Positions 7,909 through 62,870 of a stretch of DNA of 64,000 nt are shown piece by piece. The stretch comes from an uncultured Gammaproteobacteria bacterium. GTDB lineage: Bacteria; Patescibacteriota; Patescibacteriia; SBBC01; CAIJZX01. The notes beneath the pieces are model-generated. The model was given only the letters and a program-made list of their open reading frames with translations, made no database searches and was not told where the DNA came from. The translations under genes were made by a program, and so were the position numbers. The DNA is taken from the NCBI GenBank assembly GCA_964383765.1, contig CAYLHT010000001.1, forward strand, positions 36,998 to 100,997, read 5' to 3'. Position 1 is the first letter of the stretch; every line of letters starts with the position of its first letter.

Positions 7909-7979
7909 CTCAGGGCAAGATCCTGAGTCTTTTTTACACAAACTCCGCCGCAGCGGAGTTTGTGATTGGTGTGGAGATT

Positions 7980-33454: not shown

Positions 33455-34144
33455 TCAGTGTTGAAGTCTGTAGAAACTGCTCAGCGTGGCAAGTTCATCT
33501 CGCCAGCGGCCGTTTCCGTTCCGCCGATCGTAGTAGATCAGAATACCCAGCGTCGTTGCACTCATCACGGCTCCGCGCAGGGTGTTCACGATTCCATGAT
33601 GGCTGTGAGTCAGCAACGCAGCGATCAAACCGACTGCCGACGCCAAGAAGATCAGGCCCCAGTTACCAATCGAGTCGAAGGCGGCTCGACGTCTCAGGGC
33701 TTTTCCGATCGTGGCGAAGTAGGCCACCACCATCAGCACCTGAGTCGTCCAAAAGGTGACACCGGGTTGATTCCTGTGCAAGCCCCAATAGACGAGGGTC
33801 AAGGCCATGGTCGACAAGCAAGCCGACTGGACGCCATCGAACGCCACGCGCAGCTCCCCCGATCGTGCTTGAACGATCAGAATGCTGAACGTGATGATGG
33901 TGATTTCCAGCGCCGCCGCATACAACGCCGTGTTGGCCACCAGCTTTTCCGAAAAGCTCCGATCCGGAATCGCCTGGTAGGCGATCATCGACAGATTCAT
34001 CGCCAGGCAGGCAATGATCCACGTGGCCGGAGCAGGGTTAACGCGGCGGCGGATCACAAGTGGGCAGTACCAGCCCACCGTTGCCGCGAACAGCAGCAAA
34101 CTAAGCAGACTAGCAAAACTGGCCACGAGTCCTCCCGCTTTCAT
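33455..34144 (-). CDS. small multi-TM membrane protein, cassette copy 2
   Basis: ATG at 34144 (MKAGGLVAS...); 6 predicted TM helices; C-terminus LIYYDRRNG is similar to copy 1's LIYRRRSN. Confidence 0.5.
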   Translation of the reverse strand: MKAGGLVASFASLLSLLLFAATVGWYCPLVIRRRVNPAPATWIIACLAMNLSMIAYQAIPDRSFSEKLVANTALYAAALEITIITFSILIVQARSGELRVAFDGVQSACLSTMALTLVYWGLHRNQPGVTFWTTQVLMVVAYFATIGKALRRRAAFDSIGNWGLIFLASAVGLIAALLTHSHHGIVNTLRGAVMSATTLGILIYYDRRNGNGRWRDELATLSSFYRLQH

Positions 34145-34208
34145 AAGTGGGTCCACTGAAGTATGGTCGAGCTGAAAACGCTCGACGTTTCACAAAGGAC
34201 GACCGGCG

Positions 34209-34237: not shown

Positions 34238-34271
34238 TCCCTGGGTCGGCTATGTGCTATACTGTGGCCGC

Positions 34272-34970
34272 ATGTCTTTAATCAAACTGGACAATATTAC
34301 TAAAGTTTTCGACGTCGGCGACGACAAGTTCAAAGCGCTCGACGACGTTTCGTTATCTATTTCACCGGGCGAATTTGTCGCGATCATGGGACCGTCCGGC
34401 AGCGGCAAATCAACATTGATGAATGTGATTGGTTTGCTTGACCGTCCGACCGGTGGAACCTACAAACTGGATGGCAAGCCGGTGTCACTCACGATGTCCG
34501 ACCGGGCGCAAGCGAAACTGCGTTCAGAATTTATTGGTTTCGTTTTTCAAAACTTCAATTTATTGCCCAATCTCGATGTTCTCGCCAATGTGATGTTACC
34601 GTCGACGTATGCCCGCTCCTTCTCACCTAACCTCTCCTCCCAAGGGAGGAGAGGAGGGAAGCTGGGGCGCGCCGTCGAGATACTAAACAATGTCGGACTC
34701 GGTCACCGTTTGCACTACCACGTCACGAAGCTGTCCGGCGGCGAAAAACAGCGCGTCGCGATCGCCCGCGCTTTGATGAATAATCCAAAAGTGATTCTGG
34801 CCGATGAACCAACCGGCAACCTCGATTCAAAATCTGGCAAAGAAGTCATGACGTTGTTGATGGACTTGAATACGAAGGGCACAACCCTGATTGTCGTAAC
34901 GCACAGCGATGAATTAGCGGCACTTGCGAATCGGATCATCCGAATAATGGATGGGAGAATAGTTTCATGA
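34272..34970 (+). CDS. ABC transporter ATP-binding protein (MacB/LolD-type) containing an in-frame palindromic insertion
   Basis: Walker [10 protein letters not shown], signature [15 protein letters not shown], Walker B ILADEPT. The start is set at [13 protein letters not shown]. The [12 protein letters not shown] stretch is encoded by the palindrome at 34631-34654. Confidence 0.85.
34631..34654. repeat. perfect palindrome CCTCTCCTCCC-aa-GGGAGGAGAGG (MITE-like element, copy A) inside the ABC ATPase gene
   Basis: The 11-nt arms are exact reverse complements. The core CCTCCTCT/AGAGGAGG is shared with the elements at 42296-42356 and 59611-59682. Confidence 0.7.
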
Positions 34971-36193
34971 TTGGCCAAGCGTTTATCACCGCCCTACGTT
35001 CGATCTGGACCAAAAAAACCAGGTCAATCTTAACGATGCTCGGCGTGATTATCGGCGTCTCTCAAATTATCGCCTTGATCGGTCTTGGGCAGGGCGTTAA
35101 GAAATCAATTTCTGACCAGGTTACTCAACTTGGAACCAATGTCTTATTCGTTCTGCCGGGGAAACTCAAGGGCAACAATGGCAGTTTCAATCCTGCGGCC
35201 TCAGTCGGTGCGTCGACCTTGACCGACGATGACGTGAAGCTGCTCCGACAACAGCCGGAAATGAGGGCTATCGCTCCGACGTCATTATTGGCCGGTTTAG
35301 CCACTGCCGGTAAGACGATTGCTAATGGCGCCCTTCTGGTTGCAACTGAACCAGATTACTTTTCCATCATCACCACGGTCAAATTGACCGCTGGCCGCAC
35401 GTTCACGCTGAAAGAAAATACCGACAAATCCAGAGTCGTCGTGATTGGGAAAAGCGTCGCCATCCAATTGTTTCCGTTAGTCCCAGACAAGGATGTGATT
35501 GGGAAAAAGATGGACATTGGCAAGAATGAGTTCACGATCATCGGCCTGGTTGAAGATAAGGAATCGAATAGTCCGTTCGGACCGAATAACGAATTCAATT
35601 CAATGGTGATTATGCCGTATGTGACCGGCAAGGCCACCAATCCGAATGCCCAAATTTTCCGGGTGGTCATGAAAATTGATCCGAACGCCGATACCAAAGC
35701 GTTCGCTAAACGCATGACCAGTCTGCTGAAGAATCAACACGGGGTTGAAGATTTCACTGTCTTCACGCAAGATGACCTGCTCGGCGTCGTGAACAATATT
35801 CTCGGTTTGATCACGACCGCGATTGTCGGTCTGGCCTCGATCTCGTTGATTGTCGGCGGAATCGGGATCATGAATATCATGCTCGTCGCCGTGTCCGAAC
35901 GCACGAAGGAAATCGGCTTGCGCAAAGCTTTGGGTGCAACACGTGGGAATATTTTGTGGCAATTCTTGACAGAATCAGCAATCATCTCGCTGTTGGGTGG
36001 CGCGATTGGCGTGGCGGTTGTATCAATTGCCAGTATTATTGTGAAACGGAAAGCCAACCTGGATATTATTGTGAATCTTCATTCGATTTTGATTGCGACC
36101 GGGTTCTCACTTGGCGTTGGGCTGTTGTTTGGCTTGTTGCCAGCCTTCCGAGCAGCACGGAAGGATCCGATTGAGGCACTGAGATATGAATAA
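34967..36193 (+). CDS. ABC transporter permease (MacB-type, FtsX domain)
   Basis: N-terminal TM, large periplasmic domain, then C-terminal FtsX 3-TM bundle; 408 aa; 4-nt overlap with the ATPase gene. Confidence 0.85.
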
Positions 36194-39611: not shown

Positions 39612-40236
39612 CGGTGATGAGTTGAGCGAAAGCGTCGTAACTTCCGGGACTAACGATTTGCTTGCCGTTGAGGAAGAACGTTGGCGTGCCGGGAATTCGA
39701 GCCGCTGTACCGGTGGTCACGTCACGCTCAATCCGATCTTTGACGGCCTGACTGTCCAGATCAGTGGTGAACTTCGCGACATCAAGTTTAAGCTCCTCAG
39801 CGTAACCGATCAAGACAGGCCGAACGTCGAGTGATTGTGACCAGGAGCTTTGACGACTGAAGAGCAGATCGTGAAAATCCCAAAATTTATTTTGCAGGTT
39901 AGCCGCTTCAGCGGCTTGGGCGGCGGTTTGGGCATACTGGTGCAACTGGCGCAGGGGATATTCCCGGTAGACGAGCGTCAACTTGGAGCCGAATTGTTTT
40001 TGGAGTTGCTCAACAATCGGTTCATATTGTCCGCAGGCCGGACATTGAAAATCACTATACTCAATCAAGACCGCCGGCGCGGTGAGTGGGCCGCTGGCGT
40101 GATCAGTCGCATCTGGTGCGGGCACGGTACTCGCACTTCCCCCACCGGCGGCGATGAACAACCAGACAATCAGACCCAGCCCGAGGATACCGCCACCCCA
40201 ACCCAACCATTGCTTTGTCATACGTCGCATAGTCAC
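39595..40236 (-). CDS. DsbA-family thiol:disulfide oxidoreductase (membrane-anchored)
   Basis: N-terminal TM anchor and thioredoxin fold with CPAC active site ([10 protein letters not shown]). Confidence 0.8.
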
Positions 40237-42623
40237 GATGTTAGTGATGAAAATCTTTTTAAGCGCAAGGAATTGAGAACGACAAACAATGACGAAAACG
40301 CCATCGCGCCCGAAGCAATAATTGGGCTGAGCGTCACTTGAAAGGCGGGATAGAGCACGCCGGCCGCAATCGGTAAGCCAAGCAGATTGTAGATAAATGC
40401 CCAGAACAAATTCTGTTTGATATTGCGGAGCGTGGATCGAGCCAGGTCGAGAGCCGTGACTACCTGTTGCAGATCATTAGCCACAATGGTAATTCCTGCG
40501 GCTTCGCGCGCGACGTCCGTGCCGGAGCCCATGGCGATGCCAACATTGGCTTGAGCTAAAGCCGGCGCATCGTTGACGCCGTCGCCGACCATGGCGACGC
40601 GTTGACCTCGTGATTGTAATTCTTTGATCTTGGTCGCCTTATCTTGAGGCAAGACATTCGCGATGACGTTGGCCGGATCAATCCCAGCCTGCTGGGCGAT
40701 GTGGCGGGCCGTAATGTCGTTATCGCCGGTCAGCAGATAGGCCTGAACTCCACGCAAACGAAGTTGTTCAATCGCCTTGGCGGTTGTCGGTTTAATCGTA
40801 TCGGCTACGCCAATCACGCCGGCGCATTCGTTATCAACTCCAACCTGGACTGCGGTTTTGCCGCCCATGGCCAACTCTTCGCGATTCAAGCGGCATCCTT
40901 CCGCATGCATGCCCAGCCGCTCCAGTAACCGTGGAGCGCCAACGACCACACGCTTGCCATTAATTTTCCCACTCACGCCAGTGCCGGGATGGGCTTGAAA
41001 ATCCGTGACAGGCAAGAGTGTAAGTTCCCGTCGTTTTGCTTCAGCCACAATCGCTTGTCCAATCGGATGTTCACTTCGTGATTCGAGTGATGCAGCGTAT
41101 TGCAAAATGAAATCACGACCGAGGACATCAGTGACCGCGAGTTTGCCAGTCGTTAACGTTCCGGTTTTATCGAAGACCACTGCATCGATTTTTTGCAGAC
41201 CTTCTAGCGCTTCGGCATTGCGGATGAGAATCCCATGCTCTGCGCCCTTGCCGACGCCGATCATGACGGCGGTGGGTGTCGCGAGTCCTAATGCGCACGG
41301 ACAGGCGATGATCAAGACGGTGACCGCAAGGATCAGCGCAAAACTCAGCGGCGTGACACCTACCGGCGGGAAGATCATCCACACCACAAACGTCAGGATC
41401 GCAATGCCAATCACGATGGGCACGAACACGCCCGAAATTCGATCCGCTAAACGCTGAATTGGCGCCTGGGAACTTTGGGCTTCTTCCACCAGGTGAATAA
41501 TTTGACTCAGCAGCGTCTGCCCGCCGACTTTGGTGGCACGGAACGTCAGCGTGCCATTGGCGTTGACCGTCCCACCATAGACCGTACTCCCAGCTCGCTT
41601 TTCATTCGGGAGACTTTCTCCGGTGACCATCGCTTCGTCGACCGCCGATTGTCCTTCGGTCACGATGCCGTCGACCGCGATTTTTTCGCCCGGACGCACC
41701 ATGATCAGGTCATTCACCTGAACTTGATCGAGTGAAATTTCAACTTCCTGTCCGTTCCGGATCACGCGTGCAGTTTTGGCCGCCAGCCCAGCCAGCTTGC
41801 GAATCGCGTCGTTGGCGCCGGCTTTCGCCCGCGCTTCCAGTAATTTGCCAAGCAGAATCAGGGTGATGATCACCACCGTCACATCAAAATATGTCGCCGG
41901 CGCATGCCCGCTACCGCTGAACGCGTTTGGCCAAACCACGGCCACCAGGCTGAAGACATATGCGGCGCCGGTCCCCACCGCCACCAGCGTATCCATATTG
42001 GCTTGAAAAAACTTCAACGATTTCCAGGCACTGATGTAAAACTGCGATCCCGCCCAAACAATCATCCCGCTCGCGACGATTAACTTGACGACGTTCCATA
42101 GGTTTTCCGACCCGACCGCGACACCAATCATCCGAGCAATATCCGGAAACATCACGATGACTGAGGCCACGATACCAACGGCAACCTTTGTCTGGAGGGT
42201 GCGGAGTTCCAGCTGGCGGAGTATGCGAGCATGATCGTGGACACTATGATCCAAACCACCCGTTTCGTGGGCGTGTTCGTGGGCATGGGTGTGGTCACTC
42301 TTCCCCCCAATCCCCCTCCTCTCAATTGAGAGGAGGGGGGTGTCGGGGGTGGAGTGAATGACCGCGGTGTACCCAAGGTCGGCAACGCGCTGACCAATAG
42401 TGTCAGGTGAGCACTGATGAGGATCATACTCAACTTTTGCCCTTTCGGTCGCATAGTTGACCTGCGCTGATGTCACCCCCGGCAATTTCTTGACTACGCG
42501 TTCAATACTTTTTGCGCACGAAGCACAGTGCATTCCAATCACCGGGAATGTCAACGTCGACTCAGTCATCCTACTTGACGAGGTTGATTGGTTTTCCTGC
42601 CGCGAACGCTTCAACATTGGCAA
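40233..42623 (-). CDS. copA: copper-translocating P1B-type ATPase with an in-frame MITE-like insertion in the HMA-to-TM linker
   Basis: HMA motif [11 protein letters not shown] motif [11 protein letters not shown], phosphorylation site DKTGTLT, HP and GDGVNDAP motifs. The element at 42296-42356 encodes ...[21 protein letters not shown].... Confidence 0.9.
42296..42356. repeat. nested palindromic MITE-like element, copy B (CACTCttcccccc..CCCCCTCCTCTCaattGAGAGGAGGGGG..gggggtGGAGTG)
   Basis: Outer arms CACTC/GGAGTG and inner 12-nt perfect arms around AATT. Shares its core and outer arms with copy C at 59611-59682. Confidence 0.7.
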
Positions 42624-48723: not shown

Positions 48724-48759
48724 GGGGCGACCCGCAGTCCGGTCGCCCCATTTTCTTTT
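48724..48759 (+). terminator. rho-independent terminator with no annotated upstream plus-strand gene
   Basis: GGGGCGACC-cgcagtc-GGTCGCCCC followed by ATTTTCTTTT. Confidence 0.6.
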
Positions 48760-51759: not shown

Positions 51760-51939
51760 GGGCAGGTAGCTCAGCTGGTTAGAGCAGTCGTCTTACCCGC
51801 CTGCCTAGCCGGCCTCTAGCTCAATGGCAGAGCGTCCGTCTTATACACGGATGGTTCCAGGTTCGAATCCTGGGAGGCCGACTAGGACGGCGGGCAGGTA
51901 CACGACCGGTCGATGGTTCGAATCCATCCCTGCCCACCA
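51760..51939 (+). tRNA. tRNA-Val(UAC)-like gene split by a 103-nt insert after anticodon nt 36 (exons 51760-51796 and 51900-51939)
   Basis: The 5' exon is GGGCAGG-TA-GCTCAGCTGGTTAGAGC-A-GTCGT-CTTAC. The 3' exon is AC-ACGAC-CGGTC-GATGG-TTCGAAT-CCATC-CCTGCCC-A-CCA. The acceptor stem has 7/7 bp, the anticodon stem 5/5 bp, and the reconstituted loop is CTTACAC. Confidence 0.5.
51810..51881 (+). tRNA. tRNA with anticodon UAU (tRNA-Ile2-like), embedded in the insert of the split tRNA-Val
   Basis: CGGCCTC-TA-GCTC-AATGGCA-GAGC-G-TCCGT-CTTATAC-ACGGA-TGGTT-CCAGG-TTCGAAT-CCTGG-GAGGCCG-A forms a perfect cloverleaf; no CCA is encoded. Confidence 0.7.
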
Positions 51940-53792: not shown

Positions 53793-53870
53793 TGGTGCGC
53801 GCATCTGGATTTGAACCAGAGACCTTCACAATGTCAATGTGACGCTCTAACCGGGCTGAGCTATGCGCGC
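53793..53870 (-). tRNA. tRNA-Val(GAC)
   Basis: Minus strand GCGCGCA-TA-GCTCAGCCCGGTTAGAGC-G-TCACA-TTGACAT-TGTGA-AGGTC-TCTGG-TTCAAAT-CCAGA-TGCGCGC-A-CCA. Confidence 0.9.
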
Positions 53871-53971: not shown

Positions 53972-54062
53972 ATGAAAGCACAAGAGAAAATATCATATCT
54001 CCTCCATATCATCAAGCATACCAAAACACCCCGCCAGGCGGGGTGTTGTGTTTGAAAGCGAT

Positions 54063-59604: not shown

Positions 59605-59610
59605 GACTGT

Positions 59611-59682
59611 CACTCCACCCCCTCGGCTGCGCCGGTCCCCCTCCTCTGAATTCAGAGGAGGGGGACGATGGGGGGAGGAGTG
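59611..59682. repeat. nested palindromic MITE-like element, copy C (intergenic, 7 nt after the rluD stop)
   Basis: CACTCCACCCCC..GTCCCCCTCCTCTGaattCAGAGGAGGGGGAC..GGGGGGAGGAGTG; the inner 14-nt arms are perfect. The right arm forms AGAGGAGGGGG-ACG-ATG (an SD plus start) for ORF 59668-59934. Confidence 0.7.
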
Positions 59683-60074
59683 AAGAAACACCCGGTGTTG
59701 ACCAGGCAAGTTAAGCCTGGTAGCGTTTGGACGCACTGGAAGGCTCTTAGTTGCTTGGTCAACCCAAGCTCACAACGCGAAGGAGTGAACATGATCCCAC
59801 GGGCGGTTGCAACCACAGGAATCGGCTACACTCTCCTCGTTGGAGTTCTAGAAGGACTTCGATGGTTGGCCAAACGGTTGTGGCCACAGGAGGTAACCAA
59901 GCATGACATCGCAAAATGCACCTCCCAGAAGTGAAGGACTAGGGAAGCCGATCATCTTAATGCTCATCGTGCTGGCTCTCGGGATAGGATTCGCTCTGTT
60001 CCTCAACGAGCTCGATCACAACCGAAAGCCTGGAGTCACACACCACCAACCATTCCTGCCGTAAGGAGGGATGT

Positions 60075-61219: not shown

Positions 61220-61308
61220 GCGGACGTGGCGGAACTTGGTATACGCGCCAGCTTGAGGGGCTGGTGGCCGCAAGGCCTTGGAGGTTCGAGTCCTCTCGTC
61301 CGCACCAA
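61220..61308 (+). tRNA. tRNA-Leu(GAG)
   Basis: Type II tRNA: GCGGACG acceptor, anticodon arm CCAGC-TTGAGGG-GCTGG, long variable arm TGGCCGCAAGGCCTT, T-arm GGAGG-TTCGAGT-CCTCT, CCA encoded. Confidence 0.85.
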
Positions 61309-61320
61309 GTCGCTCTTTCC

Positions 61321-61397
61321 GGACGATTAGCTCAGTTGGTTAGAGCGTCTCGTTTACACCGAGAAGGTCGTAGGTTCGAATCCTACATCGTCCACCA
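61321..61397 (+). tRNA. tRNA-Val(UAC)
   Basis: GGACGAT-TA-GCTCAGTTGGTTAGAGC-G-TCTCG-TTTACAC-CGAGA-AGGTC-GTAGG-TTCGAAT-CCTAC-ATCGTCC-A-CCA. Confidence 0.9.
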
Positions 61398-61416
61398 AAC
61401 ATGTTAAACTAAAAAC

Positions 61417-61659
61417 ATGAAGTGGCTGATCGCAATTGCCGTTATCGGTGTGGGTAGTCTGATGGTTATCAAAACTCAGTGGATCACGGATTTTACCGGA
61501 CCGATTGATTGGGCCGAACAACATCTCGGATCTGAGGGCGGGACACGACTTTTCATCAAACTCCTGGGCGTGATTCTGATCCTGGGCGCATTCCTTGGGG
61601 TGACGGGAATTCTGGGTGGATGGATTACTGGATTTTTTGGGGGGTTGGGACAGAGATAG
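61417..61659 (+). CDS. small membrane protein between tRNA genes (hypothetical)
   Basis: 80 aa with two TM helices and a glycine-zipper-like C-terminus; located between tRNA-Val and tRNA-Ala. Confidence 0.3.
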   Translation: MKWLIAIAVIGVGSLMVIKTQWITDFTGPIDWAEQHLGSEGGTRLFIKLLGVILILGAFLGVTGILGGWITGFFGGLGQR

Positions 61660-61663
61660 TATT

Positions 61664-61736
61664 GGGCCAGTAGCTCAGTTGGTAGAGCATCCGGTTTGCA
61701 TCCGGAAGGTCTGGGGTTCGAATCCCCACTGGTCCA
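61664..61736 (+). tRNA. tRNA-Ala(UGC)
   Basis: GGGCCAG-TA-GCTCAGTTGGTAGAGC-A-TCCGG-TTTGCAT-CCGGA-AGGTC-TGGGG-TTCGAAT-CCCCA-CTGGTCC-A; no CCA encoded. Confidence 0.9.
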
Positions 61737-61744
61737 CTAAAAAA

Positions 61745-62240
61745 ACACCCGGTCTCGGAGTCGTGTCGAGGATTATCCATCCAGGATGCACGACCCGAGG
61801 CCGGGGTTGGTGGAGCGACGCGCGAATGCCCGGAGAGCCGGGTAGGCTGTTATCCGTGCAAGCGCCAGTGGCGCTGCAATACGGGAGCCTTGAGCCTCGG
61901 CGATGGGCGCCGCCGCGAATGCGGCGGTCTAGTGCGCGGTATCAACTTGCGCGTGAGCGAGCCCAACGACATCGTCGTTGTGTTCCCTATTCGAGGGAAC
62001 CTATCGGTGTTTTGGGTGAATCTCAATTCACCGACTGGCTCTTGCGGCCTCACGCCGCGGCGGTACTCTTCTTCATGGCGACCTCCATGGTTGGCCAGAA
62101 AGCGGGCGCACTCCCAGGGTTGGGACTGCCCCGACAGTGAAGACTTTTTCAAGATGCCCGAGCAGTATACACCCTTTTCGGATTTTGTCAAGACGGGCTT
62201 GAAAATAATGCCCAAGTCAGCTATCCTTGCCAGGCAATTT
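61745..62240 (+). other. GC-rich, hairpin-dense, ORF-poor block between tRNA-Ala and tRNA-Phe; unassigned structured RNA candidate
   Basis: Contains the hairpins CCCGGTCTCGG...CCGAGGCCGGG (with inner GTCGTG/CACGAC), GCGCC-agt-GGCGC and CCGCCGC-gaat-GCGGCGG, plus the 12-mer CCGGGTAGGCTG and CTTGAGCC seen in bacterial RNase P RNA. The only ORFs here are low-complexity or span the tRNA. Confidence 0.25.
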
Positions 62241-62245
62241 TGATC

Positions 62246-62320
62246 GCCTGGGTAGCTCAGTGGTAGAGCGCAGCCCTGAAGAGGCTGGCGTCGTCAGTTC
62301 GATTCTGACCCCAGGCACCA
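62246..62320 (+). tRNA. tRNA-Phe(GAA)
   Basis: GCCTGGG-TA-GCTCAGTGGTAGAGC-G-CAGCC-CTGAAGA-GGCTG-GCGTC-GTCAG-TTCGATT-CTGAC-CCCAGGC-A-CCA. Confidence 0.9.
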
Positions 62321-62321
62321 C

Positions 62322-62397
62322 GGCCCGATAGCTCAATTGGTAGAGCAGCTGCCTCTTAAGCAGCGGGTTGCAGGTTCGAGTCCTGCTCGGGTCACCA
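62322..62397 (+). tRNA. tRNA-Lys(CUU)
   Basis: GGCCCGA-TA-GCTCAATTGGTAGAGC-A-GCTGC-CTCTTAA-GCAGC-GGGTT-GCAGG-TTCGAGT-CCTGC-TCGGGTC-A-CCA. Confidence 0.9.
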
Positions 62398-62796: not shown

Positions 62797-62870
62797 ATGC
62801 TCACCTCCTTTTCCGGCAGAGCCGGACCCGGCTCTGCCGGACGACTCTGGTTGATAGATGATGAATAAAG

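Follow-up and report, generated by a model that had tools for sequence, protein, structure and literature searches.

Related repeat systems

Repeats of the BoxC, PIT and triplex-motif type have been known for about 30 years and, to our knowledge, have no established function or mobility mechanism. The class comprises BoxC, the PIT elements and the 'intrastrand triplex motifs' (Holder et al. 2015, PMC4666352), and is also treated by Hoyne and Maher (2000), as cited in that paper; within it, TM_ECO has the layout CCCTCNCCC N3-6 GGGNGAGGG N3 GGGNGAGGG, with TTA or CCG as the second loop, forms a triplex in vitro, as shown by CD/NMR, is always intergenic in E. coli K-12, and has been linked to local genome rearrangement, with no transposase association (PMC4666352). 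Three elements (A, B and C) of the window, that is, of the whole 64,000-nt stretch of DNA analysed here, resemble the BoxC, PIT and TM_ECO repeats in the order of their parts (C-rich arm, 3-6-nt loop, G-rich arm, 3-nt loop and second G-rich arm), in the purine-motif (class II) triad rule, which for the window elements is predicted from sequence, and in the existence of many dispersed copies, sometimes as inverted pairs, with no associated transposase; element A also shares the second loop TTA with type A of TM_ECO. They differ from TM_ECO in that the arms of A (CCTCTCCTCCC) and of B and C (CCCCCTCCTCT) are not CCCTCNCCC/GGGNGAGGG, the strict pattern thus being absent, and in that A and B are situated inside long ORFs with full-length Pfam domain matches, only C being intergenic. 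Moreover, the host belongs to the Patescibacteria (CPR), outside the coverage of the BoxC/PIT survey in PMC4666352, and many of the Kerfeldbacteria copies, unlike BoxC and PIT, carry a mini hairpin in the second loop.

The Rickettsia palindromic elements (RPEs; Ogata et al. 2000, reviewed in PMC10969869), which are about 100-150 bp long and encode a conserved peptide, offer a parallel of another kind, since they are also palindromic repeats of a small genome, located in frame in unrelated housekeeping genes, at fold-compatible sites, and translated. In-frame insertion of this type, in unrelated conserved genes and at permissive sites, is found here in the loop of an ABC ATPase and in the linker of a Cu-ATPase; element A, however, is about 39 nt long, has a polypyrimidine/polypurine three-arm layout, is unrelated to the RPEs in sequence and phylum, and does not qualify as one of them.

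The REP/REPIN sequences with RAYT (Y1) transposases (PMC3733652) are likewise dispersed GC-rich hairpins of 20-40 bp, often in inverted pairs, but inspection revealed neither a GTAG nor a CGTC tag at A, B or C (the flanks of A read cctaa/CCTC...GAGG/aggg). When the Y1_Tnp protein of a related Kerfeldbacteria locus (L005) was used in a tblastn search for a Y1 transposase in the 64-kb window, no match better than E = 4.5 was obtained. REPs are, in addition, extragenic by definition. In that related locus, a Y1_Tnp (IS200/RAYT-like) gene is located directly upstream of the orthologous ABC ATPase (L005:9351-9940, also L006:1908-2497), flanked by palindromes AGCGCGGG...CCCGCGCT (AGCGCGGGTTTTAAACCCGCGCT) of a family different from that of A, B and C; a similar palindrome is found at L003:4117-4150. 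Finally, the MITEs inside genes (ERIC, Nezha and Anabaena MITEs; PMC10969869) are also non-autonomous short repeats for which in-frame fusions are possible, but the element described here has no terminal inverted repeats apart from its hairpin, no target-site duplication and a far shorter length, and falls outside that group.

The host gene and its locus

Element A is hosted, in frame, by a MacB/LolD-type ABC ATPase gene on the plus strand (34272..34970; protein P0001, 232 aa), within an ORF that extends over 34254..34970 and in which the ATG of the database protein is at 34272. The assignment is based on Walker A, Q-loop, LSGGQ-type signature, Walker B and H-loop, together with a partner MacB_PCD/FtsX permease, whose gene (34967..36193, plus strand) starts with a 4-nt overlap of the ATPase stop, both genes therefore constituting one operon. 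In an alignment of 28 sequences, the catalytic motifs of P0001 occupy invariant columns (Walker A G40-T48, Q-loop Q93, LSGGE 154-158, Walker B D178/E179 and H211), and they are thus intact, as the initial annotation had proposed. The proteins nearest to P0001 come from Candidatus Kerfeldbacteria/Patescibacteria MAGs, and synteny with genomes of these groups includes the S1 protein, the ABC pair, VKOR, DsbA, the Cu-ATPase and the 2-hydroxyacid dehydrogenase. The genes around the ATPase are housekeeping genes according to Pfam, apart from three of those tested, which gave no Pfam match, and no transposase was detected among the neighbouring genes tested in this way. Just upstream of the ATPase (33455-34159), two 233-aa ORFs on opposite strands overlap almost exactly; the minus-strand one is membrane-protein-like, with no Pfam match, and the plus-strand one is probably a shadow ORF.

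Elsewhere in the window, a bacterial 16S rRNA gene on the minus strand (1-1600) runs off the window start, and may hold an insertion of about 100 nt, because its 1600 nt cover only 1488 model positions; rRNA gene insertions are common in CPR. Five of the seven tRNA genes are clustered at 61.2-62.4 kb (61220-62397), the others being at 51810-51882 and 53793-53870, and a palindrome with a 14-bp stem, TCCGGCAGAGCCGGACCCGGCTCTGCCGGA, is located at 62812-62841, about 415 nt beyond the last tRNA gene. Other GC-rich perfect palindromes, not of the pyrimidine/purine type (e.g. CACAAACTCCGCCGCAGCGGAGTTTGTG), at 7937-7964, 54025-54047 and 48724-48749, may be terminators or another repeat family.

Architecture of element A

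The 24-nt perfect palindrome of the initial annotation, CCTCTCCTCCC-AA-GGGAGGAGAGG at 34631-34654, was recovered as described, in frame in the ATPase gene and with an 11-bp perfect stem, but the unit is more than this palindrome: element A is a three-arm structure of about 39 nt (34616-34654) that is best read on the minus strand. In the window it appears as ...TATGCCCGCTCCTTCTCACCTAA-CCTCTCCTCCC-AA-GGGAGGAGAGG-AGGGAAG..., whereas the minus strand presents, in order, the Y-arm, the loop, the R-arm, TTA and GGTGAGAAGG. The triplex-motif scan places on that strand, at 34616..34630, both the second loop TTA (34628-34630) and the third arm GGTGAGAAGGAG (34616-34627), and reads the whole as CCTCTCCTCC-cttg-GGAGGAGAGG-tta-GGTGAGAAGG, with a stem of 10, loops of 4 and 3 and one mismatched triad. 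In 9 of 10 triads the third arm matches the purine arm in mirror order (G->G, A->A/T), one or two triads being mismatched, and a third arm of this quality is rare in random flanks, given the hairpin of element A (P = 0.0036).

With up to three mismatches allowed, the window contains the 24-mer a single time and 100 dinucleotide shuffles do not contain it at all, and no second copy of the exact arms of element A was found in the 64 kb. The RNA of the element folds at -27.9 kcal/mol in a 60-nt context, with hairpin z-scores of only about -2.5, because shuffled sequence rich in Y/R also folds well; significance rests instead on the exact-pattern and triplex-motif shuffles. Such a strong mRNA hairpin in the ATPase transcript could affect translation. 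Two of the three sense frames of element A are open, and so are about half of all frames of A, B and C. A comparison with Rfam at gathering thresholds gave no family for any of the three elements.

The insertion in the ATPase protein

The stretch of P0001 that joins the Q-loop to the signature motif contains, on alignment evidence, a net insertion of 10 residues, specific to the lineage of this protein. Element A encodes roughly S116-G128, and HMMER alignments with solved MacB, LolD, MJ0796 and S. pneumoniae chains place a gap of 9-10 residues exactly at the insert, after ...YA(G) and before the next helix. In the 28-sequence alignment with the closest homologs (57-83% identity), the gap extends over the full 10 columns in 25 of the 27 other sequences, the proteins P0012 and P0115 having shorter inserts of their own at this site; at the DNA level the gap is of 30 nt in two relatives, which agrees with the gain of about 10 residues claimed initially. 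The nearest insertion-free relative, with 86% identity outside the loop, retains no remnant. The distance from Q-loop to LSGG is 61 in P0001. In a set of 150 representatives of clusters at 50% identity, most measured domains have a distance of 50-54 (mode 52); only three of this set reach a distance of at least 56, and none of the three looks pyrimidine/purine-derived.

The AlphaFold2 model of P0001 has a mean pLDDT of 88.4, and its sole segment below 50 comprises residues 119-127 (PNLSSQGRR), encoded by the palindrome and situated between helix 103-112 and helix 123-140; the surface helix-loop position initially proposed is consistent with this loop between two helices, of very low model confidence in an otherwise confident domain. 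Compared with MacB and LolD domains, the model gives TM-scores of 0.88-0.90. The insertion site is where the helical subdomain begins, a part of ABC domains known as the 'structurally diverse region'. A loop of 12-13 residues is common to MacB, LolD and MJ0796. With the fold and motifs in place, the insert-bearing ATPase probably still works.

The triplex-motif class in the window and beyond

The ITxF criteria (Holder et al. 2015) demand a Y arm, an R arm and a third arm of G/A/T in consecutive order, with stems of 6-15 nt and loops of 1-6 nt; stems longer than 7 nt may contain a single mismatched triad at most. When both strands of the window were scanned in the ITxF manner, the only matches were at A, B and C, with stems of 10-13, while 60 dinucleotide shuffles averaged 0.03 matches per window, all of them with stems shorter than 10. 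By sequence layout, A, B and C are thus intrastrand triplex motifs of the class II purine motif, and element A is assigned to the same class (BoxC/PIT/TM) as the other two.

The pyrimidine/purine palindromes related to element A are located at 42312-42339 (B) and 59635-59666 (C). Element B, TCACTCTTCCCCCC-aat-CCCCCTCCTCTC-aatt-GAGAGGAGGGGG-gtgtc-GGGGGTGGAGTGA (42295..42357), lies in frame in a heavy-metal (Cu-type) P-type ATPase gene of the minus strand (40233..42569; HMA, E1-E2 ATPase and hydrolase domains), in the His-rich linker after the HMA domain, and presents the triplex motif on both strands, with stems of 12-13; it is a near-perfect repeat of the triplex type. An attempt to delimit B as an insertion did not succeed, the His-rich linker being too variable; the orthologs of this Cu-ATPase were those of a full-length protein search, the N-terminal 223 aa alone leading only to distant fragments. 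Element C, TCACTCCACCCCC-(mini hairpin tCGGCtgcGCCGg)-GTCCCCCTCCTCTGAATTCAGAGGAGGGGGAC-gat-GGGGGGAGGAGTGA (59610..59683), is intergenic, begins 6 nt past the stop of an RluD-like pseudouridine synthase gene and has the motif on the plus strand, with a stem of 12. It has both outer arms, and one second loop holds the mini hairpin CGGC-tgc-GCCG, a layout that recurs in intragenic copies of other genomes.

The outer arms of B and C read TCACTC[C/T][A/T]CCCCC ... GGGGG[T/G][G/A]GAGTGA. The arm of A differs from that of B (CCTCTCCTCCC vs CCCCTCCTCTC), and likewise from that of C, at 2 of 11 positions, both differences being transitions compensated in the partner arm, and the third arm is common to all three elements; the single palindrome family proposed at the outset is supported by this comparison. 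The status of A as a family member is founded on architecture and on near-identity of the arms within 64 kb, rather than on a genome census. Two of the three copies of the window (A and B) are thus located inside genes and translated.

When public contigs were scanned with either arm type, many hairpins turned out to have a third G-rich arm about 3 nt further on (e.g. tccCCTCTCCTCCgctgGGAGGAGAGGgacaGGGAGAGGAGG, gCCCCTCCTCTtcAGAGGAGGGGgttGGGGGTGGTG), often with several such repeats per contig and, in two cases (L019 and L035), with both arm variants on a single contig. For 38-70% of these hairpins, vs about 1% of control flanks, 8 or more of 9 triads of the third arm are compatible. The third arm repeats the purine arm in mirror order, G facing G and A facing either A or T, the pattern that constitutes the rule for an antiparallel purine-motif triplex. 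A scan of genome contigs for CCCCTCCTCT N2-8 AGAGGAGGGG yielded at least 120 matches, dominated by Sphingomonadales, the genome of the window being absent among the matches listed; it illustrates how widely the class is distributed. In these matches (L128-L247), the hairpin CCCCTCCTCT-(tc/ga)-AGAGGAGGGG with the third arm GGGGGTGGTG is very abundant in Sphingomonadales, including Novosphingobium, Sphingopyxis, Erythrobacter and Sphingomonas, and often forms inverted pairs 40-100 nt apart. A metagenome scan with a lineage-specific third-arm pattern gave 76 stretches, none of which looked closely related; to judge from the match contexts, they are mostly G-rich stretches with no hairpin, or elements on high-GC contigs.

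Carriers at the same loop and in other genes

Among the 120 closest ABC ATPases, 10 other homologs, belonging to at least three separate lineages, have enlarged loops (19-38 vs 12-13 residues) exactly at the site. All six carriers available as DNA (L004, L324-L328) contain triplex-type elements in one orientation and frame: on the sense strand, a third arm of pyrimidines precedes the Y/R hairpin, often with a GC-rich mini hairpin like that of element C between the two, and the purine arm is read as G/S-R-R-G. Their stems (CCCCTCCTT, CCTCCCCT, CTCTCC and CCCCTCCTA) differ in sequence, with the stem of L324 eroded and that of L327 harbouring a second palindrome nested in its loop. In this last case (L327:511-567, protein P0093), an unrelated palindrome CGTAAAGCGACGTGG...CCACGCGACTTTACG lies inside the loop of the Y/R hairpin, resulting in a loop of 38 residues that is still in frame. 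Sharing of the insertion by homologs had been named initially as a point that would tell against it; analogous elements do occur at the same loop in other lineages, but they do not refute the insertion in P0001, because its nearest relatives are devoid of any trace.

In a neighbour-joining tree of this one gene, calculated with the loop left out, the carriers occupy three positions. P0001 stands alone among insertion-free relatives, the nearest of which is 86% identical, the nearest carrier being 76% identical, with moderate support around it (45-46%) in this single-gene tree; P0012 groups with P0009, which has a short loop (bootstrap 94); and the third position is a clade of 12 members, eight of them carriers (bootstrap 83). 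P0009 reads HPSYDRRG, which in the gene of P0012 is hairpin-encoded, and remnants are seen in three of the four short members of the 12-member clade (RRGG in P0083, HRGG in P0090 and HPSS..RSG in P0102). Five close relatives of P0001, in turn, have no remnant and possess loops of outgroup length. Since remnants are found in the other two groups and none near P0001, the alignments point to one recent gain in the lineage of the window and at least two older, eroding occupations elsewhere; the loop site is recurrently occupied.

The same type of element is found in other genes. An exact 16-mer, CCTCGACGAAGCTCGG, within a region of 28/32 identity, is common to the ABC-loop insert of L004 (L004:4264-4315) and the Cu-ATPase-linker insert of L329 (L329:10229-10311); as it occurs in different genes and genomes and is not of low complexity, it denotes a dispersed family. 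In both loci the 16-mer forms the mini hairpin, and both inserts are read as APRRSS(E/G)H. In the Cu-ATPase linker, element-like peptides (e.g. PPPRVGGVGGG) are present in several orthologs, those of Kerfeldbacteria including P0280, P0287, P0293 and P0306, and the element is seen at the DNA level in L329. Intergenic copies with the same layout are present in five related loci (L003, L004, L005, L324 and L325).

Origin of element A

Taken together, element A is probably a copy of a dispersed triplex-motif repeat that was inserted in frame and is tolerated in a permissive loop of the ATPase. Fixation of a copy of about 39 nt in the ABC ATPase gene would date from the recent past of the host lineage, which is Kerfeldbacteria-like (Patescibacteria), and the copy would have replaced about three codons for a net gain of 10. 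Its survival would be favoured by its being in frame, by arms that are all-pyrimidine or all-purine and cannot hold stop codons, and by its position in the variable loop at the opening of the helical subdomain, its translation there being a disordered Ser/Pro-then-Gly/Arg loop that would leave fold and motifs of the ATPase as they are. Where a genome leaves very little room between genes, the copies that persist are those in permissive loops, a logic established for the Rickettsia palindromic elements (PMC10969869). Selection on element A would be near-neutral and its arrival by copy-and-insert, although we know of no enzyme for the triplex-motif class, and by inspection there is no target-site duplication or terminal tag at A and no direct repeat flanking A, B or C. 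A shared target sequence at the left junctions was considered and set aside as not convincing: four elements start right after ATGTA, that of the window about 7 nt later.

The hairpin or triplex could instead have been kept in the ATPase gene for what it does; it might cause a pause of the ribosome or RNA polymerase between the ATPase halves, adjust the ATPase/permease ratio or benefit the protein through a basic Ser/Pro-Gly/Arg loop close to the interface with the membrane domain. We regard such a selected function as unlikely. The recurrence of the same loop, orientation and frame (G/S-R-R-G) in at least three lineages, the maintenance of pairing in stems that differ in sequence (CCTCTCCTCCC, CCCCTCCTT, CCTCCCCT, CTCTCC) and the basic character of the native loop just before the helix, seen in the solved-chain alignment, are in line with it; nevertheless, the element is absent from about 109 of the 120 closest homologs and from nearly all of the 150 diverse representatives, loop length ranges between 19 and 38 residues, erosion or nested inserts are seen in some copies (L324, L327), the encoded peptide is modelled as disordered, and the family also occurs in intergenic DNA and in an unrelated gene. 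Furthermore, in published E. coli tests, repeats of the class were not seen to act as promoters or terminators or to block the polymerase in vivo (PMC4666352).

A local de novo origin, by template switching or hairpin-primed copying of a purine-rich stretch encoding R-R-G-G, is judged quite improbable. The purine run GGGAGGAGAGGAGGG has a mirror symmetry of its own, from which quasi-palindrome correction could start, the window has no other copy of the exact arms, and the lack of target-site duplications and element termini is compatible with such a process, but the closest relatives read YVRQSTKAGQRA, YVKPSTSVKQRA and YARNTKNAKPRA at the site, with no purine-rich precursor, and element A has the third arm and 3-nt second loop of the family; these are the grounds for giving local copying little weight. 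To them are added the two compensated transitions that alone separate the arms of A from those of B and C, and the cores, not of low complexity, common to inserts in different genes and genomes.

It is very unlikely that one element entered the ancestral Kerfeldbacteria ATPase and was then deleted in most lineages. The alignments suggest that a single ancient insertion fits the 12-member clade, where eight members have the enlarged loop and three of the four short ones keep remnants, and the HPSYDRRG of P0009 is of the same kind; it does not fit the lineage of the window, given the remnant-free, outgroup-length loops of the five close relatives of P0001, the perfect stem, as would be expected of a young copy, and the 12-13-residue loop shared with MacB, LolD and MJ0796.

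An assembly or sequencing artefact is practically negligible as an explanation, for while palindromes can give chimeric joins in short-read assemblies, the palindrome is present and identical across the element A region in an independent Logan assembly of run SRR12313480 (L001, the 1-kb contig that was the only one returned in the search for contigs encoding P0001) and is therefore no product of the assembler, the reading frame and downstream motifs are preserved, and similar in-frame elements exist in several other assemblies.

With regard to the insertion of a dispersed repeat, the preferred reading, random insertion would not obviously lead one to expect the same loop to be occupied in three or more lineages. 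A broader proposal, which we put forward tentatively and consider doubtful, is that Kerfeldbacteria (CPR) have an active three-arm repeat family that enters coding sequence repeatedly and with a site preference, remodelling the same surface loops in independent lineages. In this proposal, the targets may be the helical-subdomain loop of the ABC ATPase and the linker of the Cu-ATPase, with the purine-motif strand always the template strand.

Implications

The repeat class and in-frame palindromic inserts are both already known; a triplex-type element translated in conserved genes, its presence in CPR and its recurrence at the same loop across lineages appear to be undescribed in the searchable literature. 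Here, in a CPR bacterium with a reduced genome, two transporter genes of essential type contain the triplex layout in translated form, and it recurs at the same protein loop in separate lineages, providing insertion events that can be dated, with empty-site controls, and a hint of orientation or site preference. After the Rickettsia RPEs, it represents a second example of repeats reshaping protein loops in small genomes, and also a warning for annotation, since loop insertions of the type Ser/Pro...Gly-Arg-Arg-Gly in CPR proteins can be repeat-derived. If the tentative proposal of an active family were true, protein loops would be evolving in an RPE-like manner through a repeat class with no known mobilising enzyme, and these bacteria would offer a natural system for working out how BoxC/PIT repeats spread.
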